This document shows, piece after piece, positions 1 through 24,682 of a DNA stretch of 64,000 nt; the stretch's first letter is position 1; each line of letters starts with the position of its first letter. The notes beneath the pieces were generated by a model. The model saw only the letters and a program-made list of their open reading frames with translations. It searched no databases and was not told the DNA's origin. The translations under genes were made by a program, and so were the position numbers. Source of the DNA: Planctomycetota bacterium (GTDB taxonomy: Bacteria > Planctomycetota > B15-G4 > JADJEK01); NCBI GenBank assembly GCA_044225365.1, contig JBGAIQ010000013.1, positions 80,261-144,260 on the forward strand. Reading direction: 5' to 3'.

Positions 1-118
1 TCGTGATGTCGACGAAGTGGAGTCGGCCCATCGCCGGCTTCTCTGGCTCTGGATGCGAGCAACCGACGAGGGACGCGAGGACGACGAAGGCGAGTCGAAC
101 GGAGCGGGAAATGGTCAG
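1..118 (-). CDS. 5' part of a lipoprotein, probably CRTAC1/ASPIC-UnbV family (runs off window edge)
   Basis: Not in ORF track. Minus-strand frame reads (L)TISRSVRLAFVVLASLVGCSHPEPEKPAMGRLHFVDIT: lipobox LVGC then an F-x-D-I-T motif typical of CRTAC1-like N-termini. An in-frame TAA just upstream forces a CTG/ATT start overlapping the TPR gene stop. Confidence 0.5.
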   Translation of the reverse strand, partial: MTISRSVRLAFVVLASLVGCSHPEPEKPAMGRLHFVDIT

Positions 119-1035
119 TCTCCTTCGGGGCGATTACCGGACATCGATGGAGCGCCGTGCTTCGCGCGGCCCTTCTTGATCTCTTCCAGCGCGGCCTTCT
201 CGAGATCGAGTTCGCCAAGTCGGTGATACACGCGCGAAAGGTTGAACCAGCAGTCTTCGCTCCACGCGACGTACTTCGTCGCGTCCTCGAGGAGGATTCG
301 CGCTTCCTTCAGGAGTGCGTCAGACTTCGAGGGATCGAGTTCGCTGCGCTGCAGCAGCAGCCCGCCGAGGCGCACCTCCGTCTTTCCGAAGTCGGTGCGG
401 TCGGATTGGCGCGGTGCTTTGCCCTGCTTCGCGAGGTTCACGAGCGCGTCCTTCGCGAGGCGATTCGAATCGCGCAGATGCTTCTCGGCTTCGTCGAGGT
501 CGCCGCGCTCGAGCGCGATCAGGCCGAGACCGTACTGCGTATCGGCTTCATCGAGGCCGAGCTTCGAAGCGGCCTGGAAGGCCGCGGCCGAGGTGTCGAG
601 GTCCCCGAGGTAGTAGCACGTCCACGCGTAGTAGATGAACGCGCCCTTCGCGTTGTCGAACACAGGCCCAGCGTCGATCACCCTCTCGAAATCTGGGCGC
701 GCGGCGGCATAGAGCTTCTGCCGGTGATTCGAGAAAGCGCGGATGTACAGCGCGCGCGGGTTGTTCGGATCCTTCGCGAGGAACTCGTCGCACACCTCGC
801 GGGCACGAGTCGAATTGCCGAGCACGAGCGCCGACATCGCTTGCTTCAGGACCGGGTCGTCGATCTTCGGCAACTCGCCCCTTTGCGCCGCAAAGCGTTC
901 GAGTGCACTCTCGATGCGGAGGACGCCCGGCGACTTCGCGACGTTCGAGTTCTTTGCGTCGCCCGGACGATCGCATGCGAGCGTCAGGCAGGCGACGAGG
1001 CACGTCGCAATCGTGGCGCGGAACGAGAGCATCAT
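115..1035 (-). CDS. Tetratricopeptide-repeat lipoprotein
   Basis: Signal/lipobox (CLVACLTLAC) after ATG at 1035; TPR-like helices (DPNNPRALYIRA, ADTQYGLGLIALERGDLDEAEKHL, CWFNLSRVYHRLGE). Confidence 0.8.
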   Translation of the reverse strand: MMLSFRATIATCLVACLTLACDRPGDAKNSNVAKSPGVLRIESALERFAAQRGELPKIDDPVLKQAMSALVLGNSTRAREVCDEFLAKDPNNPRALYIRAFSNHRQKLYAAARPDFERVIDAGPVFDNAKGAFIYYAWTCYYLGDLDTSAAAFQAASKLGLDEADTQYGLGLIALERGDLDEAEKHLRDSNRLAKDALVNLAKQGKAPRQSDRTDFGKTEVRLGGLLLQRSELDPSKSDALLKEARILLEDATKYVAWSEDCWFNLSRVYHRLGELDLEKAALEEIKKGRAKHGAPSMSGNRPEGD

Positions 1036-1087
1036 GCGCAGATCGTAGCGTGCAGGAAGTCGTCCCGGGGCGGCTGTTTTGGGGGCC

Positions 1088-1702
1088 TCAATCGAGGACG
1101 CGCGTCCACGCCGCAAGGCGCTCCGCGAGCGCGACGCGCCCGCGCTGGACTCGCTTGTACGCCGTTTCGACGTCGAGGGAGAGGTCGGTGGCGGCGTCCT
1201 TGATCGGCATCTCGCGCAGGTACACGCGCTCGAGGATCTCGCGTTGATCCTTCGGCAGCGTGGCGAGCGCGAGGCGAAGCGTCGTCGCTTCGGAGCCGCT
1301 CACGGCTTTCTCCTCCGGCGACGGAAGCGACGAAGCCACTTCCGGAGCGCCTTCGGCATCGCTGCTCGAGACTCCCGGGCGAGCGTTTCGTCGCTGCGCA
1401 TGGCGAGACAGCAAGCGGAATGCGCAGCGCAGCAGATAGGCGCGAAACGCGATCGGATTCTCGAAGCTGGTGCGGCGCGCCACCTTCACGAATCCAGCGG
1501 CCGCGTCCTGAGCGACGTCGCTCGCGCTACGCGTGGGCGTGAGCATGTGCCCGTAACGGCGGCGGATTCGCTCTTTCAGCGTCGCGATCTCCACGCGGAG
1601 CAACTCGTCGAGCAACTGCGGCTCGCCGTTCTGCTGGAAGCGCGCGAGGAGGCTCGCGACCGGGTCTTCCGCGTTCGATCGTGAATTCGAGGACGATTCC
1701 AT
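1088..1702 (-). CDS. ECF-family RNA polymerase sigma factor
   Basis: Region 2 (SASDVAQDA...FRAYLLRCA) and region 4 (LATLPKDQREILERVYLREMPIKDAATDLSLDVETAYKRVQRGRVAL); start taken at ATG 1702. Confidence 0.9.
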   Translation of the reverse strand: MESSSNSRSNAEDPVASLLARFQQNGEPQLLDELLRVEIATLKERIRRRYGHMLTPTRSASDVAQDAAAGFVKVARRTSFENPIAFRAYLLRCAFRLLSRHAQRRNARPGVSSSDAEGAPEVASSLPSPEEKAVSGSEATTLRLALATLPKDQREILERVYLREMPIKDAATDLSLDVETAYKRVQRGRVALAERLAAWTRVLD

Positions 1703-1755
1703 GGGTGCCGCAGAATCGGTGTCCAACCCGAGTGAGAGTACACCTTCTGGGAGCT

Positions 1756-1998
1756 ATGGCGAACAACCAGAAAATCGCTGACGTCCCGAGCGACGACGAT
1801 CCACTCGTCCGCTCGCTCCACGATTGGCTGGACCCCGCGAACTTCCCTGCGATCGCGTCGAAGGTCGACGCGAAGCTCGACTATCTCGACACGGCGGATC
1901 GGGCGCGCTTCACGCGGCTCGTCGCCGAGACCTTGGAACGAGTCCGCGCAAGGAAAACGAAGGATCTTGGAAGATCCGAGTCCAGCGCCGCCGAGTGA
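1756..1998 (+). CDS. Small (80 aa) protein homologous to the N-terminal module of the downstream kinases
   Basis: GGGAG RBS before ATG 1756; DDPLVRSLHDWLDP...DRARFTRLVAE aligns with DDPLARAIFDWLDP...DKERWRRLISE in both kinases. Confidence 0.8.
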   Translation: MANNQKIADVPSDDDPLVRSLHDWLDPANFPAIASKVDAKLDYLDTADRARFTRLVAETLERVRARKTKDLGRSESSAAE

Positions 1999-2079
1999 GC
2001 GCCTTTCTCTCTCCCGACCGGCGCGATTCCCGCGCTGGCCCGACACCTCGAATCCAACTCGATCAAAGAGAGAACGGTC

Positions 2080-3708
2080 ATGCGCTCCATTCGACTGAAC
2101 GCCTTCCACATCGCGTCCTGCGGCCTCCTCCTCGGTCTTCCTGCTGCCCGCGCGGAGCAGTGTTTTGCTCAGTACTTCCCAGAGCCGCTCACTTCACCGT
2201 GGGTATCGCCCGCGTCTCACTACGGATCCGCGGTTGCGGCGTCGGGGACGATGTTCGCGGTCGGCGCGCCCGACGACAACCAAGCCATGGGATCGGTCGT
2301 GATCCACGAACTCGCGAATGGGTCGTTCGGCAGTTCGACCGTGATCCAGCCGCTCTTCGGCATGCCGGGCGACCGCTTCGGCGCGGCTGTCGCGCTCGAC
2401 GGCGATCGGCTCGTCGTGGGTGCGCCGATGGATAACGCCGCGGGCGTCGGCACCGGCGCCGGTGCGATCTACGTCTACCATCGCATCGTGAATCAGGGCA
2501 CGAGCGCATGGATCCAGGACGCCAAGTTCTACGCCCCGGATGCCGCGCCGGGCGATCACTTCGGCGCCGTCGTCGCGGCCAGCGGCAACACGATCCTCAT
2601 CGGCGCCCCCGATCGCGACGGGCTCGCCGTCGATCAGGGTCGGGCCTATGCGCTCGAGTATTCGGTCAACAGCCTCGTGTGGTCCACGTTCAACCAGACT
2701 ACTCCGCAGACGAACGAGCACTACGGCAGCGCGCTCTCGATCGATGGCAATCTGCTCGCGATCGGCAGCCCGCACTACATCAAGAAGACGCCCTCGACAC
2801 CCGAGTTCGGACGCGTGACGGTGCTGAGCCGCAGCGCACCGGGATCCAATTGGCTGAAGGAATCGGAACTCGTCCCGGCAACCGGTGTGGCGGGTCTCCA
2901 CTTCGGGATCTCGGTCTCCGTGAAGTCGGGTCGAATCCTCGTCGGTGCTCCCGGGTTCGTGGACTCGTCCGGTTTGGCATCGGGAGCCGGCCTGTTGTTC
3001 GAGAAGCAGAACGGCACCTGGACCCAAGTCACCGATCTGAGTTCGTACGACGCGCTGTTCAACGGCGAGACGCTTCTCGGCACGGCCGTGGTCCTCTTGG
3101 AACACGACGTAATCATTGCGAGTCCGACCCGATTGAGCACTGGACACCAGGACATCTACGGGCAGTGGTGGGTGCCGACCGGGGTCTCCCTGCCGTTCGG
3201 CGACATGCAGGTGAACGACGGCACGACGATCAGCCCCATCATCGCGGCCTCGGGATCGTTCGCGATCGCGGGTCGCCCGGCCGCGGCGCCGGGTGAGGTC
3301 GACAAGGCCTTCGCGCTCTCGCTCTGCGCCGGCAATTGGTCGAATCACCCGTGGGCGGCCTCCAAGGGCGTTGCCGGATATCCGCAGCTTCGTGGCGCGG
3401 GTCCTCTCGACGACAACCTCGCGCTCGAACTGCGCCTCGAGAAGGCGAAACCGAACACGTTCGGCATGCTCCTCGTCCACGTTGGCATCGAGGCCGCGCT
3501 GCCCTTCCACGGCGGCACCCTCGAGGCGTTCCCTGCCAACCTCGCGCTCACGGTCCCGATCGACAATGCGGGCCGGTTCGCGGCGCCCGCGGTTCTTCCC
3601 GCGGGTCTCTCCAACGTCTCGTTCGTGATGCAGATGCTGATCCCGGACGCGACGGCGAAGGGCGGAGTTGCGCTCTCGACGGGGCTGAAGGCGACGACCG
3701 CGCCCTGA
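2080..3708 (+). CDS. Secreted FG-GAP (integrin-alpha-like) repeat protein with C-terminal extra domain
   Basis: Signal peptide ending ARA; repeats GDRFGAAVALDGDRLVVGAP, GDHFGAVVAASGNTILIGAP, HYGSALSIDGNLLAIGSP. Confidence 0.85.
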   Translation: MRSIRLNAFHIASCGLLLGLPAARAEQCFAQYFPEPLTSPWVSPASHYGSAVAASGTMFAVGAPDDNQAMGSVVIHELANGSFGSSTVIQPLFGMPGDRFGAAVALDGDRLVVGAPMDNAAGVGTGAGAIYVYHRIVNQGTSAWIQDAKFYAPDAAPGDHFGAVVAASGNTILIGAPDRDGLAVDQGRAYALEYSVNSLVWSTFNQTTPQTNEHYGSALSIDGNLLAIGSPHYIKKTPSTPEFGRVTVLSRSAPGSNWLKESELVPATGVAGLHFGISVSVKSGRILVGAPGFVDSSGLASGAGLLFEKQNGTWTQVTDLSSYDALFNGETLLGTAVVLLEHDVIIASPTRLSTGHQDIYGQWWVPTGVSLPFGDMQVNDGTTISPIIAASGSFAIAGRPAAAPGEVDKAFALSLCAGNWSNHPWAASKGVAGYPQLRGAGPLDDNLALELRLEKAKPNTFGMLLVHVGIEAALPFHGGTLEAFPANLALTVPIDNAGRFAAPAVLPAGLSNVSFVMQMLIPDATAKGGVALSTGLKATTAP

Positions 3709-3723
3709 TCGGAATTCCATCTT

Positions 3724-3757
3724 GCCCCCGCGCGGACGGCTGCGCGGGGGCTTCTTC
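3724..3757 (+). terminator. Probable intrinsic terminator
   Basis: GCCCCCGCGC / GCGCGGGGGC 10-bp stem followed by TTCTTC, just after the stop at 3708. Confidence 0.55.
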
Positions 3758-3816
3758 GCTTGCATCGGAGATCGCTACCTCGTGGGGAGGCTTCACGGCA
3801 GAATGGGAACGCCGCC

Positions 3817-6800
3817 ATGGAGAGAAACGAACCCGATCGCGATGTACCGGACGATCCGCTCGCGCGAGCGATCTTCGACTGGCTCGACCCCGAGCGATTC
3901 GGATCGATCGAGATCGAGAGAGCGCCCGACAGCCTGATCTCCGACGACAAGGAGCGTTGGCGTCGTCTCATCTCCGAATCGGGCAAGAGCACGATTCCGC
4001 CCATGCCCAAGGCCCCGCCGCCCCCCTACGAGCGAGTGGGGAACTATCGTCTGCGTGCGCCGATCGGCAGCGGCGGTTTCGGCCACGTCTATCTCGGTGA
4101 GGACGAACGCAACGGAAAGCGCGTCGCGGTGAAGTTGCTGCGTGCCGAGATCGCGATCGATCCGCGCGAGCGCGAGCGATTCCAACGCGAGGCCACCGCC
4201 GCACGGCGCGTGAACCATCCCAACTGCGTTCGCGTGCTCGAAACGGGAGAGATCGAGAACTCTCTCTACACGGTTCTCGAGATCATCGAAGGCGAAGGGC
4301 TCGACGAGCATCTGCGGCGCCTGCGCGCGATCGGCCAGAAGATGACGCAGGAGCGCGCGACCGAGATCGGCATCGAGATCTGCGACGCGCTCGCAGCCGT
4401 TCACGCCGAAGGACTCGTCCATCGCGACGTGAAGCCCGCGAACATAAGGCTCACCCGGGAGGGTCGGGCGGTCCTCGTCGACTTCGGACTCGCGACGGGC
4501 GAGGCGCTTGCGGTTCTCACGCGAACGGGCGAATTCATCGGCTCGCTCCCGTACGCACCGCCCGAGCAGATACGCGACGGAGTCCGCGAAGTCGACGCGC
4601 GCGCCGACCTCTATTCGCTGGCGGCTTCGCTCTACGAGTGCCTGACGGGGCAGACCGTCTTCACCGGCGCGTCGGCCGAGCAACTCGTGTTGTCGATCGT
4701 GCAGGACGAGCCGATCTCGCCGCAGCGACTCAATCCGCAGGTGAGCCGGGAAGCATCGCTCGTGCTCGGCAAGGCGCTCGAGAAGAATGCGGCGCGACGC
4801 TACGCAACGGCGAAGGATTTCCAGGCAGACCTCCTCGCTCTGAAGGCGAACGAGCAGGTGAGCGCGCGCCCACGCAGCCTGATGCGCGGACTCGAACTCA
4901 CGATTCGCAAGCGTCCGGTCTTCAGCGTCTCCGTCGCACTCTTCCTCGTCGTCGGGATCGGACTTCCTCTCGCCTTGTTCATCCAGCAGAAGGCGTATGC
5001 CGCACGCCTCCGCGGCGAGCGCGACCGAGCGGACTCGCAGCGTCTCGCCGCGCTCTCGCAGATCGAGATCGATGTCGATCCCGCACGCGCGGGACTCCTG
5101 GCGCTCGCGTCGATCGACCGTTCGCCTTCGTTCGAGGGCCGCAACGCGCTCCTTCGCGCGCTGTCGCAGATGAACGAGAAGAAGACGATTCATGGCCCGT
5201 GGCAGCGATTGAACTACGCACTCGCAGTGGGAGACGGCACTGCCGCGGTTGCACTCGAACGCAACGGGGATCTCTACTCGATCGATCTGAAGAGCGGCGC
5301 GGTGGTGCGTCGCGCCGGGCCCTTCGATCCCAACTGCATGCTCGCGACGACATCGAACGAAGCGCTCGTCGGCACGCCGACGGGCGTCGTCGAGCGATTC
5401 GCGCTCGACGACTTCCGCAAGCTCGAGCCGTGGACGGTGGGGAAGGCGCCGATCCTCGCGATCGCGGCGACGCACGACGGGCATCGTGCGGTCGTCGCTT
5501 GCGGTCGCGCGATCGTGTTCATCGAAGACGGCGTCCAGAAGACCACGCTCTCGCCGCACGCCAAGCGAATCGGCGACGTCGCGATCTCGCAGAACGGCGA
5601 CAAGGGATTCAGCGTCGGAGCCGATGGAAAGCTGTTCGAATTCGATACGGCGAGCGGCAAGTTCGAGGAACGACTCTCCTTCGGTGAGACCGAACCTCCT
5701 CGCCTTTGCCTCTCGCGCGATGATTCTCTGCTCGCTTGCGGAACCGATACCGACGTCGCGCTCTACGACGTGGCAAAGCATTCGTTGCGGCAGCGAATCG
5801 GCGGCCACTACGGACAGAGCACCGTTCTCACGTTTTCGCCGAAGGCGGACTACCTCGTCGCTTCCACGTCGCGCGAACTTCCCGCGCTGTATCGCGTTTC
5901 GGACGGCGAACGCATGATCGCGTATCGCGGCCACACCGATCGAGTGAAGAGCATCTCGTTCCTGGGCGATTCGCTGCGCATCCTGACCTGCGGTAGCGAG
6001 CTCGATTCCACCCTTCGCATCTACTCGCCGCGTTCCGTACTCGACGACGACGTCGTGCTGAATCTCGGCGGCGACGTCTTCTACCTCGAACCGGCAAGGG
6101 ACTTCTCCGCCTTCATCGCTGGGGAGTATCAAGGGACGAAGGTGAAGCGAGTCGAACTCGACTCGGACCAGTTGGTCTGGGAATTCGGTGCAGGCGATCC
6201 CACGCTCGACCGGGTCCGCTCGATGCGACACGGCGATGTCTTCATCGTGGTGCGCAACTCCGGCGCGCTCGAGTTCCGACGGATCGCGGACGGGGCCATC
6301 GTCGAAACGGTGCAGGGCGTCGCCACGAACATCGAGCCGCACTTCGACGAACGGCGCAATCGTCTCCTCGCGAGCATCGACGACAACCTCGTCGCGCTCG
6401 ACGCGAAGTCTGGCGCAGTCCTCCGTAAGGCCGCGATGGCGGACGGTGCGAAGGAAAGGATCCACGGCTTCTCGATCGACGCCGATGTCCTCCTCGGCGC
6501 CACCGATAGCGGGCGAATCGTCCGGATCGACCCCGAGACGCTCACGATGGCTGCGATTGCGCAACTCGAGTCGGGCCTTCGCGTGCTCGGAATGGAGATC
6601 GATGCCCAGCACGACCGCTTCGTCGCGCAGGTCGTGAACATGAACACGTTCGCGTTGCGTCTCGAGTGGTTCGCGATCCACTCCAGCGAATCGCTCGGGC
6701 GCACGCCCACTGTCACTTCGCACATCTGGCACACTCACGGATTCGCTGCGGAGGGCAATGAATACGTCTACTCGATCGGCGGATCGCTACACCTGCTCTC

Positions 6801-7146
6801 GCTGATCGACGGCAGTGAGCGAACGATTGCGAATCCCGATACGGTCAACACTGCGGGGGTATCGGGAGACGATCGCCTCGTCGCCATCGGCACGACGTCG
6901 GGATCGATCCGAGTCGTCGATCACGCCACGCTGAAGGCGATCGTCGACCTCCCGGCGCACGTTGCGAACGTGAACAAGCTCGTCTTCCACGGCGACGATC
7001 ACATGCTCTACTCCGCGTCGAGCGATGGAACGGTTCGACGCTGGCGAATCGATCGCCTGGTCGAGAACGCCCGCGGAGTGTTCCCGAGGGAGCTGTCGCG
7101 AGAAGAACGCGAGCACTTCGAGATCGAGGATCACGAGGGCGAATGA
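3817..7146 (+). CDS. Hanks-type Ser/Thr protein kinase with TM helix and WD40 beta-propeller (paralogue 1)
   Basis: GSGGFG, VAVK, HRDVKPAN, DFGLA, GSLPYAPPE; hydrophobic segment PVFSVSVALFLVVGIGLPLALFI; WD40 repeats (GHTDRVKSISF, SASSDGTVRRW). Confidence 0.92.
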   Translation: MERNEPDRDVPDDPLARAIFDWLDPERFGSIEIERAPDSLISDDKERWRRLISESGKSTIPPMPKAPPPPYERVGNYRLRAPIGSGGFGHVYLGEDERNGKRVAVKLLRAEIAIDPRERERFQREATAARRVNHPNCVRVLETGEIENSLYTVLEIIEGEGLDEHLRRLRAIGQKMTQERATEIGIEICDALAAVHAEGLVHRDVKPANIRLTREGRAVLVDFGLATGEALAVLTRTGEFIGSLPYAPPEQIRDGVREVDARADLYSLAASLYECLTGQTVFTGASAEQLVLSIVQDEPISPQRLNPQVSREASLVLGKALEKNAARRYATAKDFQADLLALKANEQVSARPRSLMRGLELTIRKRPVFSVSVALFLVVGIGLPLALFIQQKAYAARLRGERDRADSQRLAALSQIEIDVDPARAGLLALASIDRSPSFEGRNALLRALSQMNEKKTIHGPWQRLNYALAVGDGTAAVALERNGDLYSIDLKSGAVVRRAGPFDPNCMLATTSNEALVGTPTGVVERFALDDFRKLEPWTVGKAPILAIAATHDGHRAVVACGRAIVFIEDGVQKTTLSPHAKRIGDVAISQNGDKGFSVGADGKLFEFDTASGKFEERLSFGETEPPRLCLSRDDSLLACGTDTDVALYDVAKHSLRQRIGGHYGQSTVLTFSPKADYLVASTSRELPALYRVSDGERMIAYRGHTDRVKSISFLGDSLRILTCGSELDSTLRIYSPRSVLDDDVVLNLGGDVFYLEPARDFSAFIAGEYQGTKVKRVELDSDQLVWEFGAGDPTLDRVRSMRHGDVFIVVRNSGALEFRRIADGAIVETVQGVATNIEPHFDERRNRLLASIDDNLVALDAKSGAVLRKAAMADGAKERIHGFSIDADVLLGATDSGRIVRIDPETLTMAAIAQLESGLRVLGMEIDAQHDRFVAQVVNMNTFALRLEWFAIHSSESLGRTPTVTSHIWHTHGFAAEGNEYVYSIGGSLHLLSLIDGSERTIANPDTVNTAGVSGDDRLVAIGTTSGSIRVVDHATLKAIVDLPAHVANVNKLVFHGDDHMLYSASSDGTVRRWRIDRLVENARGVFPRELSREEREHFEIEDHEGE

Positions 7147-7165
7147 ACACGGCCAGGACGGACTC

Positions 7166-10100
7166 GTGACGCGAAACGAAGACCCGACTCCGGACGATCC
7201 GCTCGCACGCGCGATCTTCGACTGGCTCGATCCGGAGCGATTCGGCTCGGGAGAGGTCGAGAAGGCACCCGAGTCGCTCGCCTCCGACGACAAGGAGCGG
7301 TGGCGTCGCCTGATCTCGGAGTCGGGGAAGAGCACGCTGCCGCCGCTTCCGAAGGCGAGTCCGCCCCCCTACGACCGTGTCGGTCCGTATCGACTGCTCG
7401 CGCCGATCGGGAGCGGAGGTTTTGGGCACGTCTATCTCGGCGAGGCCGAGGATGGGACGCGGGTCGCGGTGAAGTTGCTGCGGGCCGAGATCGCTCGCGA
7501 TCCACGCGAGCGCGAGCGATTCCAACGCGAGGCGACGGCGGCGCGTCGCGTCGCCCATCCAAACTGCGTCCGCGTTCTCGAGACGGGTGAAATCGAGGAC
7601 GCAAAGTACATCGTGTTCCAGGTGATCGAAGGCGAGAACCTCGACGAGTACCTGCGGCGCCTTCGCGCCGTCGGACAGAGGATGACGGAGGAACGAGCAC
7701 TCGAGATCGGCATCGAGATCTGTGATGCGCTCGCCGCGGTGCACGCCGAAGGCCTCGTCCATCGCGACGTGAAACCGGGGAACATCCGCCTCACGAAGCA
7801 AGGACACGCGGTGCTCGTCGACTTCGGGCTCGCCACGGGTGAATCCCTCGCCGTGCTCACGCGGACGGGCGAGTTCATCGGCTCGTTGCCGTACGCACCG
7901 CCCGAGCAGATTCGCGATGGCGTCCGCGAGGTGGGGCCGCGGGCCGACATCTACTCGCTCGCCGCGACGCTCTACGAATGCCTCACCGGCCAGACCGTCT
8001 TCACGGGCGCTTCCGCCGAACAGCTCGTGCTCTCGATCGTCCAGGACGAACCGATCTCACCGCAGCGCTTGAACCCGGCCGTCTCACGCGAAACGGCGAT
8101 CGTCTTGTCGAAGGCGCTCGAGAAGAGCGCGGCGCGTCGGTACGCAGTCGCAGGTGATTTCAAAGCAGACCTGGTCGCGTTGCGATCCGGCGCCCCGATC
8201 GTCGCTCGTCCGCGCAGCATCGTCCGCACGCTCGAACTGTCGATTCGCAAGCGACCGGTCTTCAGCCTCTGCGTCGCGCTGTTCGCCGTCGTGTGCGTCG
8301 GCTTGCCGCTCGCGCTGCTCGTTCAACAGCGGTCCTACAACGCGAAGCTGCGCGAGGAGCGCGACATCGCGAATGCGCAGCGACTCGCCGCGCTCTCCCG
8401 GATCGAGGCTAGCGTCGACCCCGCGCGCTCCACCTTGCTCGCGCTCGAATCGATCGATCGCGCGCCGACGATGGAGGGGCGCACGGCGTTGTTCGAGGGC
8501 TTGTCGTGGCTCACCGAGGAGAAGACGTACTACGGCGACTGGGATCGTCTCGCGGGTGCGTGCGCGTTCGACGGGGACACCCGATTCGTGGCGCTCAATC
8601 GAAAAGGGGAACTGTTCGACATCGATCGCGCATCGGGCCGCGCGACCATCGTGGCAAGCGGGTTTCCGCCCTTCTCCGTACTCAGCGGTACGCCGAACGC
8701 AGTGCGGATCGGACTCCCGAACGGGACGATCCAGAGGTACTCGTTGCCCGATCTCGCGAAGCAGGAGACGGTCGAGGTCGGTGCGTCGCCGGTGACGGCG
8801 ATCGTCGCGATGCCGAGCTGCGAACGCGTTCTCGCGTTGTGTGGTCGCGAACTCGTCGTGATCGAGAACGGTGCAGTCGTGAGTCGCTTCAAGCCTCACA
8901 AGGGGCCGGTCGGTGGAATCGCGATCGCGAACGACGGCCGCACGCTCTACAGCGCGGGCGACGACGGAGCGATTCGCGCCATCGACGTCGAAACGCAGGC
9001 AATCCGCGATCTCGCGACGATCGAGAGCAGCATGCCGCCCAAGCTTGCGCTTTCTCCCGACGGCAGCCGTCTCGCGTGCGAGACGGAGACCGACGTGCTC
9101 GTGCTCGATCCGCACACGGGATCGGCGCTCTTCCGCTGCGACGAGGATCATCGCCAGCTCAGCGTCCTCGCGTTCTCGCGCGATTCGGAACGCCTGCTCG
9201 CGGCGGAAGTGGTGGGTGTCGTCAACGTCATGCGCACGAGCGACGGCGCTCGCGTCGCCACGCATCGCGGTCATACGAATCCGGTGAAGAGCGCGGCCTT
9301 CCTCTCCGACTCCCACGACGTGTTCACTTGCGGCAGCGAGACCGATTCGACTTTGCGCATCTTCGCCGAACGGACCGTGGTCGAGGACATGACGATCGGA
9401 CGGAGCGGAAAGGACGCCGTTCGCGTCGACGAACTTCCGAACGGAGCGGCTCTCCTCGTACCGAGCGAGTCGGACCGCAGGCTCGATCGCATCGCAATCG
9501 ACGGATCGGGAATCGACTGGAAACTCGAGTTCGCGGCGGATTCGACGATCGACGCCATCGCGCTCCGCGAAGGGTGCGAGATCTTCCTCCTGACCCACGA
9601 TTCCGGAGACTTCGATTCGAGGAGCGCGATCGACGGCCACCTCGTTCGGTCGCTACCCAAGATTCCGAAGCTTCTGAAGCCCAGCTTCGATGCGACGGGC
9701 CGCGGGATCGTCACCATCGTCGACGGGGCGATCACGATCCTCGATTCGATCGACGGCTCCGTTCTCGCTCGCGATCGCCTCGAGTCGGCGTCTCCCGGAT
9801 GCCGCGTGTTCGCCGCCGCAGCGGGCACGATCCTCGCCGGGACCGAGGACGGGCGAATCCTCCTCCTCGATCCAAAGACGCTCGAGATCGCCCACTCCAT
9901 CGCGCTCGGTCAAAAGGCAGTGTGCGCCGCGTTCTACGTCGATCCGAAGCAGGACCGGTTTGCTGCGCGAATCCTCAGCACGACCGGCGTCGGTGTGCGC
10001 TACGAGTGGTACTCGTCGAAGGACGGATCACTCCTCGGTCGCGTTCCCGAAGTGACGAGTCATTACACGACGCCGTTCGGGCTCGCCCGCCAGGGCTCGC

Positions 10101-10501
10101 TCTTTCTCTACTCCGTCGGCGACACGCTCCACGTCGTGGAGCTCGCGACCGGCAACGACCGCACGATCGTCGGCCAGGTCCGGATCACGGCTGCGACGGT
10201 CTCGAACGACGGGCGCTTCGCCGCCATCGGCGATATCGACGGCGCGATTCGAGTCGTGGAGTTCGAGTCGGGCGAGGGATTCCTCGACATTCCCTCGCGG
10301 GACTTTCGCGTCGAGCACCTCGTGTTCGACACGCACGATCGCAGCGTGGCCCCGTCGAACTCGTTGGTCGTCGTCTATGACGACGGGATCGTGCGGCGGA
10401 TCGATCTGCTCGCGTTGAAGGAACTCGCCCGCGATCGAACGCCGCGAGTCCTCACCTCCGGCGAACGCGACCGATTCCGGGTCGACGCTTCGCGCAATTG
10501 A
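7166..10501 (+). CDS. Hanks-type Ser/Thr protein kinase with TM helix and WD40 beta-propeller (paralogue 2)
   Basis: Same motifs (HRDVKPGN, DFGLA, PPE); GTG start at 7166 after AGGA aligns with the start of paralogue 1. Confidence 0.92.
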   Translation: MTRNEDPTPDDPLARAIFDWLDPERFGSGEVEKAPESLASDDKERWRRLISESGKSTLPPLPKASPPPYDRVGPYRLLAPIGSGGFGHVYLGEAEDGTRVAVKLLRAEIARDPRERERFQREATAARRVAHPNCVRVLETGEIEDAKYIVFQVIEGENLDEYLRRLRAVGQRMTEERALEIGIEICDALAAVHAEGLVHRDVKPGNIRLTKQGHAVLVDFGLATGESLAVLTRTGEFIGSLPYAPPEQIRDGVREVGPRADIYSLAATLYECLTGQTVFTGASAEQLVLSIVQDEPISPQRLNPAVSRETAIVLSKALEKSAARRYAVAGDFKADLVALRSGAPIVARPRSIVRTLELSIRKRPVFSLCVALFAVVCVGLPLALLVQQRSYNAKLREERDIANAQRLAALSRIEASVDPARSTLLALESIDRAPTMEGRTALFEGLSWLTEEKTYYGDWDRLAGACAFDGDTRFVALNRKGELFDIDRASGRATIVASGFPPFSVLSGTPNAVRIGLPNGTIQRYSLPDLAKQETVEVGASPVTAIVAMPSCERVLALCGRELVVIENGAVVSRFKPHKGPVGGIAIANDGRTLYSAGDDGAIRAIDVETQAIRDLATIESSMPPKLALSPDGSRLACETETDVLVLDPHTGSALFRCDEDHRQLSVLAFSRDSERLLAAEVVGVVNVMRTSDGARVATHRGHTNPVKSAAFLSDSHDVFTCGSETDSTLRIFAERTVVEDMTIGRSGKDAVRVDELPNGAALLVPSESDRRLDRIAIDGSGIDWKLEFAADSTIDAIALREGCEIFLLTHDSGDFDSRSAIDGHLVRSLPKIPKLLKPSFDATGRGIVTIVDGAITILDSIDGSVLARDRLESASPGCRVFAAAAGTILAGTEDGRILLLDPKTLEIAHSIALGQKAVCAAFYVDPKQDRFAARILSTTGVGVRYEWYSSKDGSLLGRVPEVTSHYTTPFGLARQGSLFLYSVGDTLHVVELATGNDRTIVGQVRITAATVSNDGRFAAIGDIDGAIRVVEFESGEGFLDIPSRDFRVEHLVFDTHDRSVAPSNSLVVVYDDGIVRRIDLLALKELARDRTPRVLTSGERDRFRVDASRN

Positions 10502-10655
10502 CGGTCCGCTGACGACATCTCGCGTCGAATCCTCTTCCGATTCGACGATCGCTTCCCTTCTGCGACCGCGGAGTCGGTGTGGAGCCGGAATCGCGGATCT
10601 CGGACCTGCGATTCTCCCGAGAGTTTCGCGCCGCGCTCCACTACATTCCAAGGCG

Positions 10656-11603
10656 ATGACCCACGTCCTCGTCACCGGCGGATCCGGATTCCTCGGCAGC
10701 GCGATCGTTCGCGAGCTGCGGGCCCAAGGCCACACGGTCTTCGCGACCTTCCAGACGCACGAGGATCGGCTGCGAAGTGAGTTCCCCGGCAAGGAGCCCG
10801 GTCTCGAATTCGTGGCGATGGACCTCACGAGCGACGAGTCGATCGAAGCGGCCTTTCGCCGCGCGTGGCCCGAGGCGGTCATCCACACGGCTGCGCTCTC
10901 CGAGTTGAAGCCGTGTGAAGTGGATCCGGATCTCGCGCACCGCATCAACGTGCAAGCGTCGATCCAGCTCGCGAGAATGACGGCGGCGCTCGGCTCGCGC
11001 TTCGTGTTCCTCTCGACCGACCAAGTGTTCGATGGGTCCTCGACGGCGTACACCGAGGAGGCGCTCGCGAATCCGATCCACAATTACGGCAGGACGAAGC
11101 TCGAGGCGGAGCGCGAGATCCATCGCGCCTTGCCCTCGGCGACGGTCCTGCGCGTCGCGCTCGTCGTGGGCACGAGTCCGAGCGGCGATCGCTCGGCGTC
11201 GGAGAAGGTGGTGAACGACCTGCGCGCCGGCAAGCGGCCGAAGCTCTTCGTCGACGAGATTCGTACGCCGGTCCATGCTCGCGACGTCGCCAAGGCCGCC
11301 GTCCATGCGATCCCCGAGCGCGAATTGCCCCTCGTCCACGTCGCGGGACAAGAAGCGATGTCGCGCTACGATCTCGGACTTCGCGTCGCGCGGGCGTTTC
11401 GCCTCGACCCTTCGAGGATCGAGGCTGTCCGACTCGACGAGGTCGATATGATGCCGAAGCGTCCGCGCAACCTGGCCCTCGAGGCGCGGCGCATGCGTAC
11501 GGTCCTACGATGCGGCGAGACATCGCTCGACGAGCGTCTCGCCGAGGACTTTGCGAGGCAGAGTGACAAGAGGGCGGCGGATTCATCCACGGGCAGTGAG
11601 TAG
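10656..11603 (+). CDS. dTDP-4-dehydrorhamnose reductase (RmlD)-like SDR oxidoreductase
   Basis: TGGSGFLG, STDQVFDG, YGRTK, DEIRTP motifs. Confidence 0.85.
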   Translation: MTHVLVTGGSGFLGSAIVRELRAQGHTVFATFQTHEDRLRSEFPGKEPGLEFVAMDLTSDESIEAAFRRAWPEAVIHTAALSELKPCEVDPDLAHRINVQASIQLARMTAALGSRFVFLSTDQVFDGSSTAYTEEALANPIHNYGRTKLEAEREIHRALPSATVLRVALVVGTSPSGDRSASEKVVNDLRAGKRPKLFVDEIRTPVHARDVAKAAVHAIPERELPLVHVAGQEAMSRYDLGLRVARAFRLDPSRIEAVRLDEVDMMPKRPRNLALEARRMRTVLRCGETSLDERLAEDFARQSDKRAADSSTGSE

Positions 11604-15260: not shown

Positions 15261-18071
15261 TCAGTGTTTCTCGACCGCGCGCAATGCGACCTCAGTCTCC
15301 TGATGCGCGGTGACGACGGCTTCGGCCTCGAGTTCGAGATACTTGCCGAGCACCTCGATCCCGGTGCGCACGACGTAGTTCCCGGGCTTCAGTCCCATCG
15401 CGCGATAGCCGCCGTTCTCGATTCGCTCCGCGATCCGTGATTCGATCGTGTTCGCCCCGCCTTCGAGTGTGAGCGAGAGCCCTTCCATCGGCAAGGGCGC
15501 GTCGTCGAATCCGTCGGCGTCGATCGTGAGGAGCAACGATCCGGCGGGCGCGACCGGGATCGTGAGCTCGAGGTCGCGGTCCTTCGACATCACGATGCCG
15601 CGTTCGACCCCGACGTACGTGTTCCCTTCACTCGGCTCGAACCTGACGTCCCATTCTCCAGGCACGACGTCATCGAACTCGCAGCGGCCCTGCGCGCCGA
15701 TCCGACGAACGCGCAGCATGCGCTGCGCGAAATCGTTGTCGCTCGGCGATGGCATCTCGAAGCGATCGATGGTCACGGTCCCATCGGTGAGAGCGAGACC
15801 GGTCTCGGCGTCGACGAACGTCGCCACGAAACGACGACACGACACATCGATGTCGAACAATCGCGTGCTTCCCGGAGCCACGCTCACGAATCGACAGGCG
15901 ACGATCTCGTTCGATCCCGACGGGTGGACGAGCAGCGCCCAGTCGCGCGCGTCGAGCAACGACGTCTTGAACTGGCCGTTCTGTCCTGTGCGACAGGTGA
16001 TCGGTTGCGGCGAGCCGATGTAGCGACCGACGCATTCGATCGTGAAGCCCCGCGCGGGCACGCCCTTCATGCGGAGTGTCCCCTCGATCGAGCCGAAGGG
16101 CGACGCCGCGATCGGAATGTCGATCGACTGCTCGGCTCCGGCCTCGAGCCGCACGACGAGCGGACTCGCCATGCGCGACGGCGCGATCGCGCCCGCGAGC
16201 GAGCCGACTCGTTCGCCGCCGTGCTCGGAGAGGAGTCCGATCTCCCACGTTCCTGCGGAGAGTCGGTCGAGGTAGAACGCGCCCAGCGGATCGACTCGCG
16301 CGAACTGCGACTCCGCGGACTCGTTGACCGCGACGACGAAGAGTCCATCCATCGCTTTGTCGCTCGCACCGATCACCTTGCCACGGATGCGCGATGCGGG
16401 TGGAAGGGCGATCTCGCAGTGTGCAGGCTCGCCGGCCGATTCGATGAGGACGTCGTGGAGCGTCGTCGCGACGTGACCGCCCGCGTGCGCCTCGACGCGC
16501 CAGCGATCCGTGACGAGGCCGGTCACGCGGAAGCGGCCATCGGCATCCGTGATCGCGATCGCCCGCTTCACGGCGTCCTGCGGATCGTTGGAATCGTTCG
16601 CGAACGAATCGGCGAACAACTCGACCTCGGCGGCGACGAGCGGCTGCGAGGTGGATGCATCGCGCACATTGCCGAGCAAGGTTCCGCCTCGAGGAAGCGC
16701 GACATCCGCTTCGATCGGACCCTCGCCTTCGGGGATCGGAATGGCCTCGACCGTTCGGGGGACGTAGCCGGGCGCGATCGCCGTCACGTCGAGGTACGCC
16801 CCGTCCGGCATCGCCGGCACGATCATGAAGAGTCGGATCGGGTCGCAACGGAAATCGCAGGACGGACTCTCGCGCTCGAACAACGAGATCGTGCTGGTGT
16901 GCGATTGCGCTGTGCCGTTCACGACGCAGCGAACTCGCACGGGCTCGACTCGCTCCTTGGTCGCAGCGTCGGTCACGTGGACGCGGATCTCGCGAAGGCG
17001 CAGGAGCCGCAACGTGAGTTCGTCCTTCACTTCGTCGAACTCGTGCGAATCCTCGAGGAAACCGAGCGCGTGGGCGTGCAGCCAGAAGGGTCCGCTGTCG
17101 GGGCACGCGATCTCGAACTTCCCATCGCTTCCGCTCGTCGCGGTACCACAGATCACGGATTCGCTGGCTTCGAACGCCGCGGAACGGGCCGAGGATTCGA
17201 CGGAGCATTCGATCGCGACGCCAGCGACGGGCTCGTCCTTGTCGTCGACCGCGAGGCCTTCGACGACACGCGCCTTCTCGAGCGTCACCTCGAGGTTCTC
17301 ACGCACCTCGCCTTCCTTCAGCGAGAAGAGCAGGCCCGGCGCGAGGCGTCCGATGAAGCCATCCTTCGAAGCGAGGATGGAGATCTCGCCCTCCGCGATC
17401 CCGCGCAGTTCGAACTCGCCGTCCGCGCCGGATTTCGTCGTCGCGTCGGAATGCGGGACGTAGACGCTCGCGCCCGCGACGCCGCCGTGCGAGTCGACGA
17501 CCCGCCCGCGAACGACGGCTTCGTGCAGCAGCGTTGCCGTGCCGACGAAGACATCGAGGTCGGAGACGCCGCGAACCGGTTCGAGCGTCGCCTGGGCGAA
17601 TCCGTCGGCCGCGATCGAGAGCTCGATGTCGGCGGAGAGCGGCGCATCGTCGACTCGAAACGACCCGTCGGCGGCGCTGATCGCGTGGCTCGGCAGCGGC
17701 GCCGCGGTGCGCGCCGAATCGAGGTCGGTCGGGTCGGCCCAGGTCACGCGTCGCGCTTCGATGCGCGCGCCGCCGATCGGGGCGCCGTCGGTGTCGAGCA
17801 CGCGACCCACGAGTCCGTGACAGCGCGGCGAGAGGCTCGTCGAGTTCTCGCGAGTCGGCGGCTCGGATGGCGCGCTCGATTCGGCGGTCGTCTCGATGTC
17901 CGTGGCACGCACGTCCTCCGATTCGTGCTTCTCGTGCGACGTTTGCTTCGGGGTCTCCGCGCCGTCGACTGCGTGCCGGCCGCTTCGAATCAGGAACGAG
18001 GCGAAGAGGAGCGCTGCGAGCGCGATCGCGAGCCCTACGAAGGGAGTGGTGGATGCGCGCCCGGATGCCAT
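15261..18071 (-). CDS. Membrane-anchored carboxypeptidase-regulatory-like (CarboxypepD_reg) repeat protein
   Basis: N-terminal TM; repeated GRVLDTDGAPIGGARI / GRVVDSHGGVAGASV / TDADGRFRVTGL motifs. Confidence 0.85.
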   Translation of the reverse strand: MASGRASTTPFVGLAIALAALLFASFLIRSGRHAVDGAETPKQTSHEKHESEDVRATDIETTAESSAPSEPPTRENSTSLSPRCHGLVGRVLDTDGAPIGGARIEARRVTWADPTDLDSARTAAPLPSHAISAADGSFRVDDAPLSADIELSIAADGFAQATLEPVRGVSDLDVFVGTATLLHEAVVRGRVVDSHGGVAGASVYVPHSDATTKSGADGEFELRGIAEGEISILASKDGFIGRLAPGLLFSLKEGEVRENLEVTLEKARVVEGLAVDDKDEPVAGVAIECSVESSARSAAFEASESVICGTATSGSDGKFEIACPDSGPFWLHAHALGFLEDSHEFDEVKDELTLRLLRLREIRVHVTDAATKERVEPVRVRCVVNGTAQSHTSTISLFERESPSCDFRCDPIRLFMIVPAMPDGAYLDVTAIAPGYVPRTVEAIPIPEGEGPIEADVALPRGGTLLGNVRDASTSQPLVAAEVELFADSFANDSNDPQDAVKRAIAITDADGRFRVTGLVTDRWRVEAHAGGHVATTLHDVLIESAGEPAHCEIALPPASRIRGKVIGASDKAMDGLFVVAVNESAESQFARVDPLGAFYLDRLSAGTWEIGLLSEHGGERVGSLAGAIAPSRMASPLVVRLEAGAEQSIDIPIAASPFGSIEGTLRMKGVPARGFTIECVGRYIGSPQPITCRTGQNGQFKTSLLDARDWALLVHPSGSNEIVACRFVSVAPGSTRLFDIDVSCRRFVATFVDAETGLALTDGTVTIDRFEMPSPSDNDFAQRMLRVRRIGAQGRCEFDDVVPGEWDVRFEPSEGNTYVGVERGIVMSKDRDLELTIPVAPAGSLLLTIDADGFDDAPLPMEGLSLTLEGGANTIESRIAERIENGGYRAMGLKPGNYVVRTGIEVLGKYLELEAEAVVTAHQETEVALRAVEKH

Positions 18072-22990: not shown

Positions 22991-24682
22991 ATGCTTTGCC
23001 CTTCGATCATAATGAGCCTGGTCTTGTCGAATCCTGTGGGTGATACGAGCTTCGAACAAATCGTCCTGCCGGAGCCGATGAGCGTCGATTGGGCGGGATT
23101 TGGCGCGCGAGTTGCCCTTGGAGATACCGAAGGCGACGGTGACGTGGATCTTGCGGTTTCAATGCCCAACACTCTGGGTGTCGGCGGCGTGTGGATTCTC
23201 CACGGTCCTGACTACGCGGGTGCGACAAAGGTCGTCGTGCCCCCGGAGGTCGGTTATGGGGCTGGGTTCGGAATCTACTCCTTGCTGCTCGCCGACCTGA
23301 ACCATGACGGCAAGTCAGATCTGATCACACACGATCTGGACATTCTCGCCACCAAAGGCCGGAACTGGGTTCACTGGGCTCCAGCGTTCGCGACGTACGT
23401 GAAAGTGATGCCGCCGCACCAGTACGCGGGGATCGGCTTCGGCGAATTGGCGGCGGTTGGGGACGTCGACAACGACGGACTAACGGATCTCGTGATGGGC
23501 GCGAGCAACATTCCCCCGAACGGTGCATTGTACGTTTATCGGGCAACCACGGGATTCGACGCGCCTGCCAAGGTGCTCAAACCCGCGACCTCAGCGGCCT
23601 TTCAGGTCGAATGGGGTGAAGGTGTTTGTATCGGCGATTCGGATGGTGACGGGCTAGCGGATATTCTAACGAATCAGGTCACCGCCGGCTCACTCGATGA
23701 GCAGATGGCATGGATTCCGTCGCTGACACCGTCCAATGCCACGATCCTTCACATTCCGGCAATGAATCCAGCGTGCCCGGTTTCGTATCACGCAAAGATG
23801 CTGTATCGCGACGTCAATAACGATGGCAAGAAGGACATCGTCGTGCGAGGCTTGTTCGCATACAATCCGGCGAACGGCCAGTTGATCAACGACGACGGCT
23901 CGATCCTCATCGACTACGGACCTAATTTCACGACGGGAAAGTGCATTCAGCAGGCGGTGCCCCAGAACGGTTCGGCGTTCGGAGTGAGCTTCGATCTCGG
24001 CGATGTCAACCGCGACGGATTCGTCGACATCGTCGGTGCCGCGCCTAGCTATCATTTGAGCGTTTTCGATCCTTACAGTACGACCTCGAAAGACGGCCGG
24101 GTGACGATCGTCTACGGCCCGGACTTCGTGACCAATCAATCCTTCGACGCCGAGGTGCCGGGGGTGTACTTCGGTAACGACGTCGCGGTCGGAGATGCGG
24201 ACAAAGATGGTTTCGACGACGTCTTCATCGGTGTGCCCGGCGCCGATGTCGTCGTTCTACTGCAGCACCGTTCGCTGCGAGCGCTGGGACCGTCGTCCGT
24301 CTCGGTCACGAGCGGGGGCAGCGTTTCGCTCAGCCTCGAGTGCGGGAAGCTCTCCGCGAACGAGAGCTACCTCGTGTTGTCGTCGTTCAGCGGATCGAGT
24401 CCCGGTCTCGACGTTCCCGCCGGCGGAAAGATGCTCCACGTTCCGCTCAACTTCGATGCGCTCACGCAGATCGGGCTGTCGTTCGCGAATACGCCCTACT
24501 TCGCGCAATTCCTCGGTCAGCTCGGCGTCGAGGGCAACGCCGTCTCCCAATTCACCATTCCGGCCGGCGCCCTCCCTCCGTCGCTGGTCGGTACGAAGTT
24601 CACCTTCGCAGGGCTCACCTTCGCCGGTGGCCAGCCGATCCGCTACGTCACGAACCCGGTCGACGTGGCCCTGACGCCCTGA
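22991..24682 (+). CDS. Secreted FG-GAP/VCBS repeat protein with C-terminal extra domain
   Basis: GDTEGDGDVDLAV, ADLNHDGKSDLI, GDVDNDGLTDLV, GDVNRDGFVDIV, GDADKDGFDDVFIG repeats. Confidence 0.85.
   Translation: MLCPSIIMSLVLSNPVGDTSFEQIVLPEPMSVDWAGFGARVALGDTEGDGDVDLAVSMPNTLGVGGVWILHGPDYAGATKVVVPPEVGYGAGFGIYSLLLADLNHDGKSDLITHDLDILATKGRNWVHWAPAFATYVKVMPPHQYAGIGFGELAAVGDVDNDGLTDLVMGASNIPPNGALYVYRATTGFDAPAKVLKPATSAAFQVEWGEGVCIGDSDGDGLADILTNQVTAGSLDEQMAWIPSLTPSNATILHIPAMNPACPVSYHAKMLYRDVNNDGKKDIVVRGLFAYNPANGQLINDDGSILIDYGPNFTTGKCIQQAVPQNGSAFGVSFDLGDVNRDGFVDIVGAAPSYHLSVFDPYSTTSKDGRVTIVYGPDFVTNQSFDAEVPGVYFGNDVAVGDADKDGFDDVFIGVPGADVVVLLQHRSLRALGPSSVSVTSGGSVSLSLECGKLSANESYLVLSSFSGSSPGLDVPAGGKMLHVPLNFDALTQIGLSFANTPYFAQFLGQLGVEGNAVSQFTIPAGALPPSLVGTKFTFAGLTFAGGQPIRYVTNPVDVALTP

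Follow-up and report, generated by a model that had tools for sequence, protein, structure and literature searches.

A kinase N-terminal module that also occurs as a free-standing small protein beside an ECF sigma factor: a candidate sigma-docking element in a narrow uncultured lineage

A 64,000-nucleotide stretch of DNA from a member of the Planctomycetota (assembly GCA_044225365.1, contig JBGAIQ010000013.1, positions 80,261 to 144,260; the whole stretch is referred to here as the window) encodes a sigma factor of the extracytoplasmic function (ECF) type, two tandem membrane-bound Hanks-type kinases, and an 80-residue soluble protein, P0001, that is a free-standing copy of a module found at the N-terminus of both kinases. 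The module accompanies one lineage of the sigma factor, as the product of a separate neighboring gene in some cases and fused to a kinase in another, and strong guilt-by-association evidence suggests that it acts in one pathway with the sigma factor and the kinases. With confidence evenly balanced, the locus is read as a kinase-linked ECF system in which the module would be a lineage-specific sigma partner, an anti-sigma-like docking element, and in which its free copy would hold or shield the sigma factor. The central features of the locus are the following:

1088..1702, minus strand: ECF sigma factor, 204 aa (Pfam/NCBIfam)
1703..1755: divergent intergenic region of 53 nt between the start codons of the sigma gene and the small open reading frame (ORF)
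1756..1998, plus strand: free-standing module protein P0001, 80 aa, soluble; conserved core D15-E58 at bases 1798-1929
2080..3708, plus strand: FG-GAP repeat protein, 542 aa (Pfam FG-GAP_2, PF14312, E 1.4e-37, three stretches)
3817..7146, plus strand: Hanks kinase 1, 1109 aa, identical to P0003 (Pkinase E 4.2e-41)
7166..10501, plus strand: Hanks kinase 2, 1111 aa counted from GTG 7166 (Pkinase E 5.7e-40)

P0001 shares 24 of 59 aligned residues with kinase 1 (BLASTP E 3e-10) and 19 of 49 with kinase 2 (E 2e-9), and the resemblance of the ORF at 1756-1998 to the N-termini of both kinases, first proposed in an earlier reading of the window (the original prediction), is thereby borne out. That reading had placed the shared segment just before the catalytic domain. 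The segment itself stands, while its position is corrected: in each kinase the module sits at the extreme N-terminus (residues ~9-55), separated from the catalytic domain by a Pro-rich linker of ~20 residues. It is helical, spans ~45 residues, and follows the consensus DPLxxALxxWLDPxRF ... DRxRLxxLvxE. Ten positions are invariant in an eight-sequence alignment of the module (A3), in the order D-P-L-x(6)-W-L-D-P, then D-x-x-R, then E. P0001 contains no hydrophobic segment. A six-frame search of the organism's own genome (6.5 Mb, 94% complete) returned the two kinases as the sole matches at E<0.1 (1.9e-6 and 9.6e-6; next E 0.18), and this genome holds three copies of the module only. The predicted gene order, with the small ORF upstream of the FG-GAP gene and the two kinases, agrees with the Pfam assignments. 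The predicted 53-nt gap to the divergent sigma gene (1703-1755) is likewise correct, because the sigma start at ATG 1702 agrees with the “MES” start called for the orthologue P0015 (97% identical).

The original prediction had allowed that the small ORF might be nothing but a decayed 5′ fragment of a kinase gene, and three kinds of evidence speak against this. The GC content of the ORF by codon position is 0.64/0.46/0.79, a pattern absent from the other five frames and characteristic of real genes in all seven genes of the region (neighboring genes, 0.65-0.69/0.45-0.51/0.80-0.83). In its core, P0001 is identical to the neighboring kinases at 16-18 of 42 residues, to free homologues elsewhere at 17 of 43, and to the module of another kinase, P0008, at 19 of 44; the cores of kinases 1 and 2 are identical to each other at 37 of 42. 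Because the P0001 core is equally far from its own kinases and from the free homologues, it belongs to an old lineage and was not copied recently from the 5′ end of a kinase gene. Finally, a 2468-nt contig from a related strain spans the sigma gene, the small ORF, and the start of the FG-GAP gene, with 62 differences from the window in 1088-1778 and 42 in 1780-2598; the flanking DNA differs by 5-9%. At 1778-1780, in the first codons of the small ORF, 48 letters take the place of one base and give another start and other first ~10 residues, while residues 11-80 of the encoded protein (P0012) equal those of P0001. Another relative, P0002, departs from P0001 over residues 11-80 by a single conservative Asp-to-Glu change. 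Two differences fall in the small ORF (1812 and 1941), both at third codon positions, among the 40 that are listed out of 335. These observations indicate that P0001 is an old lineage under selection and not a kinase 5′ fragment.

The family to which the module belongs is small and has both free-standing and kinase-fused members. A hidden Markov model (HMM) search of 1.84 billion representative proteins, in which relatives more than 50% identical are hidden behind their representatives, gave eight matches at E<=1e-3, six of them credible: P0003 (kinase 1), the soluble P0002, the membrane-helix proteins P0005 and P0006 (107-109 aa), and the kinases P0008 and P0009. The two remaining matches, P0004 and P0007, are repeat proteins with partial matches in multiple stretches and were set aside as probable false positives. 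P0008 and P0009 carry the module at residues 1-59; in P0008 the kinase follows it, then a membrane helix and a region of helical repeats; P0009 is laid out like the window kinases. A word-based profile search added the anchored forms P0010 and P0011, and cluster look-ups added P0012-P0014. In all, 13 proteins carry the module, a lower bound because close relatives hide behind representatives: four are kinases that bear it at the N-terminus, and of the nine that stand free, three are soluble and six have a C-terminal membrane helix. Outside the window, free-standing forms are commoner than fused ones. The anchored forms, six of the nine free proteins, consist of a short cytoplasmic helical part and one membrane helix followed by at most ~7 residues, a layout that resembles that of a minimal membrane anti-sigma factor.

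No relative of the module was found in Pfam, NCBIfam, or PDB sequences, and a PDB profile search gave no match at E<=10. Against Pfam and NCBIfam, P0001 matched no family at E<=0.01, and P0005, P0006, and the N-terminus of kinase 1 matched nothing relevant at E<=10; zf-HC2 (Pfam) and the other known anti-sigma family models (zf-HC2/ZAS, RskA, others) went unmatched. In the ESM Atlas, the best score for P0005 was 0.89, to unnamed clusters, and one neighbor cluster has zf-HC2 in 39% of its members, at a score (0.85) rated as often due to chance. Neither the 60 relatives searched nor 400 other genomes from the phylum (12 candidates scored in each) yielded the module. Scans of a genome contig collection gave 31 stretches with a peptide pattern, none confirmed, and 26 with a degenerate DNA motif, none with the second half of the module and with HMM scores inflated by selection; two scans of a metagenome contig collection gave 401 and 595 stretches, none confirmed. 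The module is very rare, and the system does not extend beyond a very narrow lineage of uncultured bacteria, whose family members come from bioreactor, sludge, and mat metagenomes.

Within this lineage, the module travels with the sigma factor. Orthologues of the sigma factor at 57-97% identity occur in metagenome assemblies only, and the best matches in 40 related genomes are 26-39% identical. Co-location was called where the contig of a module protein and that of a sigma orthologue share their source and exact size in nucleotides; gene order was seen in the window and in one strain. By this measure, eight of the ten module contigs other than the window pair with a contig of a sigma orthologue (61-97% identity), one of them confirmed directly:

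P0012 with sigma P0015: Logan, 2468 nt, confirmed directly on the contig
P0010 with sigma P0018: JGI, 2554 nt
P0006 with sigma P0032: Logan, 19840 nt, two contigs each
P0011 with sigma P0033: Logan, 10895 nt
P0013 with sigma P0021: Logan, 5813 nt
P0005 with sigma P0034: JGI, 2598 nt
P0014 with sigma P0035: Logan, 2428 nt
P0009 (kinase) with sigma P0028: Logan, 41937 nt

No sigma pairing was obtained for P0002 (1005-nt contig) or P0008 (13285 nt). Contigs of 2.4-2.6 kb imply that the module and sigma genes lie within ~1.5 kb of each other. The comparison of stand-alone and kinase-fused hits and of their ECF neighbors, which the original prediction had put forward, thus yields nine free and four fused proteins and ties the module to the sigma lineage in eight of the ten contigs beyond the window. 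Three configurations can be distinguished: (i) a sigma factor with a tail-anchored small module protein, (ii) a sigma factor with a module-bearing kinase (P0009 with sigma P0028), and (iii) a sigma factor with a soluble small module protein, as in the window and the near strain, to which the window adds two module-bearing kinases. With 2468 nt, the near strain's contig does not extend far enough to reveal such kinases. Since the module is a separate neighbor of the sigma gene in some lineages and fused to a kinase in another, a fusion signature is added to the guilt by association, and both point to a shared pathway.

The sigma factor has the composition of an ECF (group 4) protein, with sigma2 and sigma4 domains only and ~200 aa. 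It scores 40.5 bits with Sigma70_r4_2 (cut-off 25.7), 58.9 bits with TIGR02937 (cut-off 42.9), and 21.7 bits with Sigma70_r2, slightly below the cut-off of 24, and PDB ECF sigma factors match it at E 6e-7. Its region 2.2 reads S59-A60-S61-D62 (bases 1517-1528) and aligns with EAED of SigW, where canonical ECF sigma factors carry the acidic D/E-A-E-D. Two of the three acidic residues are therefore replaced and the last Asp is retained, with S61-D62 invariant in 21 of 21 members of the sigma family. This is what is expected of a kinase-activated ECF sigma factor, and the window sigma may be of that type, as the original prediction implied. EcfP lacks the DAED motif and has STTA, in which PknT phosphorylates the second Thr and thus supplies charge for RNA polymerase binding (PMC8999054). 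Motifs that stay partly acidic, with Ser/Thr inside or close by, may occur in other kinase-linked ECF groups (PMC8999054), a description that the window sigma fits and that would, by analogy, make it a candidate for phosphorylation. A second phosphosite in the sigma2-sigma4 linker is reported for PknS/EcfK (PMC13147305), and the corresponding linker of the window sigma is Ser/Thr-rich. Among eight loci fetched around sigma homologues, six have a kinase within 8 kb of the sigma gene; two of these loci are cut by contig ends.

Residues 11-21 of the sigma factor (E-D-P-V-A-S-L-L-A-R-F, window 1640-1672) resemble residues 14-24 of P0001 (D-D-P-L-V-R-S-L-H-D-W, 1795-1827). An hhalign comparison of the sigma N-terminus with the first helix of the module aligned 16 columns at E 0.1 and a probability of 0.6%, which is not significant, and the likeness is possibly due to chance or mimicry.

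The two kinases lie 2.1-5.5 kb from the sigma gene; their overall identity is 52% and rises to ~85% across the N-terminus and kinase domain. Both have the VAVK, HRDVKP(A/G)N, and DFG motifs of Hanks-type kinases. Kinase 1 consists of the module (3817-3981), the Pro-rich linker, the kinase domain (~4048-4812), a membrane helix (residues 365-383), and a WD40-like beta-propeller region; kinase 2 has the module at 7166-7324, the kinase domain at ~7388-8146, and a membrane helix at residues 360-378, and continues like kinase 1. The longest ORF of kinase 2, from ATG 7025, would overlap kinase 1 by 122 nt. Homology to kinase 1 and P0009 begins at GTG 7166. AGGA lies 7 nt upstream of this codon, which is most likely the start; automatic annotation may therefore over-extend this kinase.

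Structural models are consistent with a module that is not part of the kinase fold. P0001 is modeled as three helices (16-24, 31-43, and 46-78) at a mean predicted local distance difference test score (pLDDT) of 65.7, and this low-confidence model has no match in the PDB at E<=10 (Foldseek). In a model of the cytoplasmic part of kinase 1, built on a four-row alignment, the module has a pLDDT of 40-59 and the kinase domain one of 70-97. Low scores beside a confidently modeled kinase domain suggest a flexible helical arm, and the module looks like one that would suit a docking peptide, which is proof of nothing. A complex prediction for the sigma factor (A7) with P0001 (A8) gave a score of 0.01 (mark 0.32; controls not run) and is no evidence either way.

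In the mechanism proposed for the locus, the sigma factor would be weak on its own, because Ser59 and Ser61 stand in for two of the acidic residues by which region 2.2 contacts RNA polymerase. The membrane kinases would sense a periplasmic signal via their beta-propeller domains, and the N-terminal module of a kinase, on its flexible Pro-rich tether, would capture the sigma factor; the kinase would then phosphorylate it, most likely at Ser61, and so activate it. The free 80-aa protein, with neither kinase nor anchor, would occupy the same site on the sigma factor and hold or shield it in its unphosphorylated form, which would set a threshold or insulate the sigma factor from the kinases. In the related genomes, the tail-anchored free form would behave like a minimal anti-sigma factor or a membrane adaptor. 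We infer three parts of this scheme: that the module binds the sigma factor, where the phosphate goes, and whether the free copy acts for or against activation.

Several observations weigh against it. The module has no similarity to known anti-sigma domains (searches of Pfam, NCBIfam, and PDB sequences were empty), and no confident model puts it in contact with the sigma factor. Kinase-linked ECF groups are reported to be typically without anti-sigma factors (PMC7826278), so an anti-sigma-like partner would be unusual here. Beyond the window and one strain, the pairing of module and sigma factor rests on identical contig source and size, with gene order not seen, and sigma-orthologue contigs of 47,573, 23,214, and 7,913 nt have no module protein on a contig of equal size in the lists compared, although relatives above 50% identity are hidden in the representative set. 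Co-location would be accounted for just as well if the module bound the kinase or some third member of the pathway.

Binding to the kinase is the basis of one alternative, considered distinctly unlikely, in which the module pairs with itself or with the kinase domain, and the free protein would block or bridge kinase dimerization and leave the sigma factor untouched. A module present on both kinases and on a free protein has the look of a homotypic interaction motif, and it ends in a conserved S-E-S-type stretch that is a possible phospho-acceptor; co-location with the sigma gene would be equally expected of any component of a sigma/kinase pathway. The search of 1.84 billion representatives, however, found no module-bearing kinase in the tail-anchored lineages, even though two of the contigs measure 10.9 and 19.8 kb, and the homotypic partner is thus missing there; this argument is weak because representatives hide relatives closer than 50% identity. 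The absence of any confident packing of the module in the kinase 1 model (pLDDT 40-59) also runs counter to kinase binding, weakly so with a four-row alignment. A second alternative, still less likely, makes the free protein chiefly a kinase substrate or a phospho-regulated anti-sigma factor whose phosphorylation frees the sigma factor, with the copies on the kinases as autoinhibitory pseudo-substrates. Kinase control of anti-sigma factors has a precedent in mycobacteria, where PknB acts on RshA and RseA (PMC8999054, PMC13147305), and both the module end and the P0001 tail are Ser/Thr-rich. Yet none of the invariant residues of the module (D, P, L, W, L, D, P, D, R, E) is a Ser or Thr, and the sigma family never departs from Ser at the position that is phosphorylated in EcfP, which favors the sigma factor as the substrate.

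It is very improbable that the 80-aa ORF is a relic of a tail-anchored partner that lost its helix after the kinases gained the module and has no role now. P0001 does lack the membrane helix found in six of the nine free homologues, and its start codon and first ~10 residues vary between strains, with the 48 letters at 1778-1780. Set against these signs of decay are an intact reading frame with gene-like codon-position GC and the preservation of residues 11-80, which are identical in P0012 and show one conservative change in P0002 between flanks that differ by 5-9%. All ten A3-invariant residues are present in P0001 as well, by definition, as P0001 is itself in A3.

Sigma factors related to that of the window are accompanied by kinase arms of a different kind. 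Kinases beside sigma homologues of 30-39% identity (loci L024-L029, in relatives and, for a paralogue, on contig C75 of the organism's own genome) carry N-terminal extensions of 50-110 residues that form a family of their own (A6), with a pattern like E-x-L-L-D-x-x-x-x-x-x-L-R-G-E ... F-L-A-x-H-P-E. The best BLASTP match of P0001 to these extensions has an E of 0.02. Comparisons by hhalign support no homology of the module (A3) to A6 (probability 0.2%) or to the sigma family (A7; 0.6%), nor of A6 to A7 (1.1%). In one genome (G007), a 117-aa ORF (L030:8833-9186, minus strand; third-position GC 0.94) lies ~0.9 kb downstream of a sigma homologue in convergent orientation, matches the A6 extensions (E 8e-8 and 2e-4), and ends where the kinase domain would start; a tblastn search with the two window kinases found no kinase on its 14.7-kb contig. 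This ORF would represent a second, independent free-standing kinase arm, and kinase N-terminal arms beside the sigma gene, free or fused, may recur more generally and diverge in step with the sigma lineage. A weak extension match at L026:13629-13778 is spurious and falls within a glycine dehydrogenase-like ORF.

The overall arrangement has counterparts in EcfP/PknT of Vibrio parahaemolyticus, EcfK/PknS of Xanthomonas citri (ECF43), and the Planctomycetota groups ECF59, 61, 62, and 217, in which an ECF sigma factor is likewise encoded beside membrane Hanks kinases with periplasmic sensors. Region 2.2 likewise has Ser/Thr in place of acidic residues, reading SASD in the window sigma and STTA in EcfP (PMC8999054). 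Unlike in the EcfP and EcfK systems, as far as the portions of the literature covered describe them, the window has its kinases as a tandem pair, the motif retains its final Asp, and the kinase N-terminal module doubles as a separate small gene beside the sigma gene. The locus also invites comparison with a partner switch: in EcfG/NepR/PhyR, as would be the case here, two proteins with a like surface compete for one partner (PMC8999054). The difference is that the duplicated element of the window is not sigma-like (hhalign 0.6%) and that the competitors are Hanks kinases and not a response regulator.

The free proteins themselves are reminiscent of small anti-sigma factors. CnrY-type class II factors and NepR are short helical anti-sigma factors, and small single-pass anti-sigma proteins exist. 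Like these, the module is a short cytoplasmic helical segment encoded beside an ECF sigma gene, to which six homologues add a membrane helix, and the fold modeled for P0001 on its own is poorly defined, as expected for peptides that fold on binding. Unlike these, it has no sequence similarity to any anti-sigma family, and its binding and inhibition of the sigma factor are putative. The anchored forms are almost without a periplasmic part and therefore cannot themselves sense outside signals.

Two further genes flank the locus:

115..1116, minus strand: tetratricopeptide repeat (TPR) protein gene (Pfam TPR_16, E 5.9e-18)
10656..11603, plus strand: RmlD-like gene, unrelated

The longest ORF of the TPR gene shares 29 nt with the 3′ end of the sigma gene, so the two are probably transcribed together; a TPR homologue was not found beside the sigma homologues in the eight loci compared. 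From 115 to 11603, ORFs and Pfam matches reveal no further anti-sigma-like gene. A scan of 900-10800 gave no sigma-70-type promoter match, and a terminator scan of the region gave six terminator-like sites, with 5.5 expected. Reading of the sequence between the FG-GAP gene and kinase 1 found a perfect 10-bp GC-rich hairpin with a loop of 8 at 3724-3751, followed by TTCTTCGCTT, that the terminator scan did not report; it may separate the small-ORF/FG-GAP transcript from the kinase transcript. The FG-GAP protein begins with a hydrophobic, signal-like segment. In genome G032, two regions near the sigma homologue (L025:9884-10243, plus strand, and 15763-16167, minus strand) match its C-terminal ~130 residues (E 6e-8 and 2e-9), and this C-terminal domain may be part of the sigma regulon or of the kinase signal. 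A second FG-GAP protein (window 22991-24682, plus strand, E 1e-27) and a membrane protein with HAMP and SpoIIE/PP2C-type phosphatase domains (window 27495-29291, plus strand, E 3e-40) are encoded 12-17 kb downstream of the kinases, and a Ser/Thr phosphatase could undo sigma phosphorylation.

Full-text searches that included PMC7826278, PMC7671368, PMC8999054, PMC11032199, and PMC13147305, and that extended neither to the supplements of PMC7826278 nor to the original EcfP paper (Iyer et al. 2020), found no sigma-docking or anti-sigma-like module common to Hanks kinases and a free protein. How Hanks kinases choose their sigma factor is unexplained in those parts of the EcfP/PknT and EcfK/PknS work that were covered, and the module is a testable candidate for such a specificity element. 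A broader proposal, tentative and on balance unlikely, treats the module as a portable sigma-recognition peptide and an evolutionary bridge between two modes of ECF control: in anchored form it would sequester the sigma factor, fused to a kinase it would serve as a substrate-docking arm, and in the window a soluble copy would compete with two kinases. If this is true, the locus would hold a gate akin to a partner switch, built from a duplicated docking peptide; such a regulatory layer would be undescribed, and the module would provide a rule for kinase-to-sigma specificity. If the module binds the sigma factor, gene fusion could interconvert anti-sigma sequestration and kinase activation, and the module would also be a compact part for orthogonal synthetic circuits.

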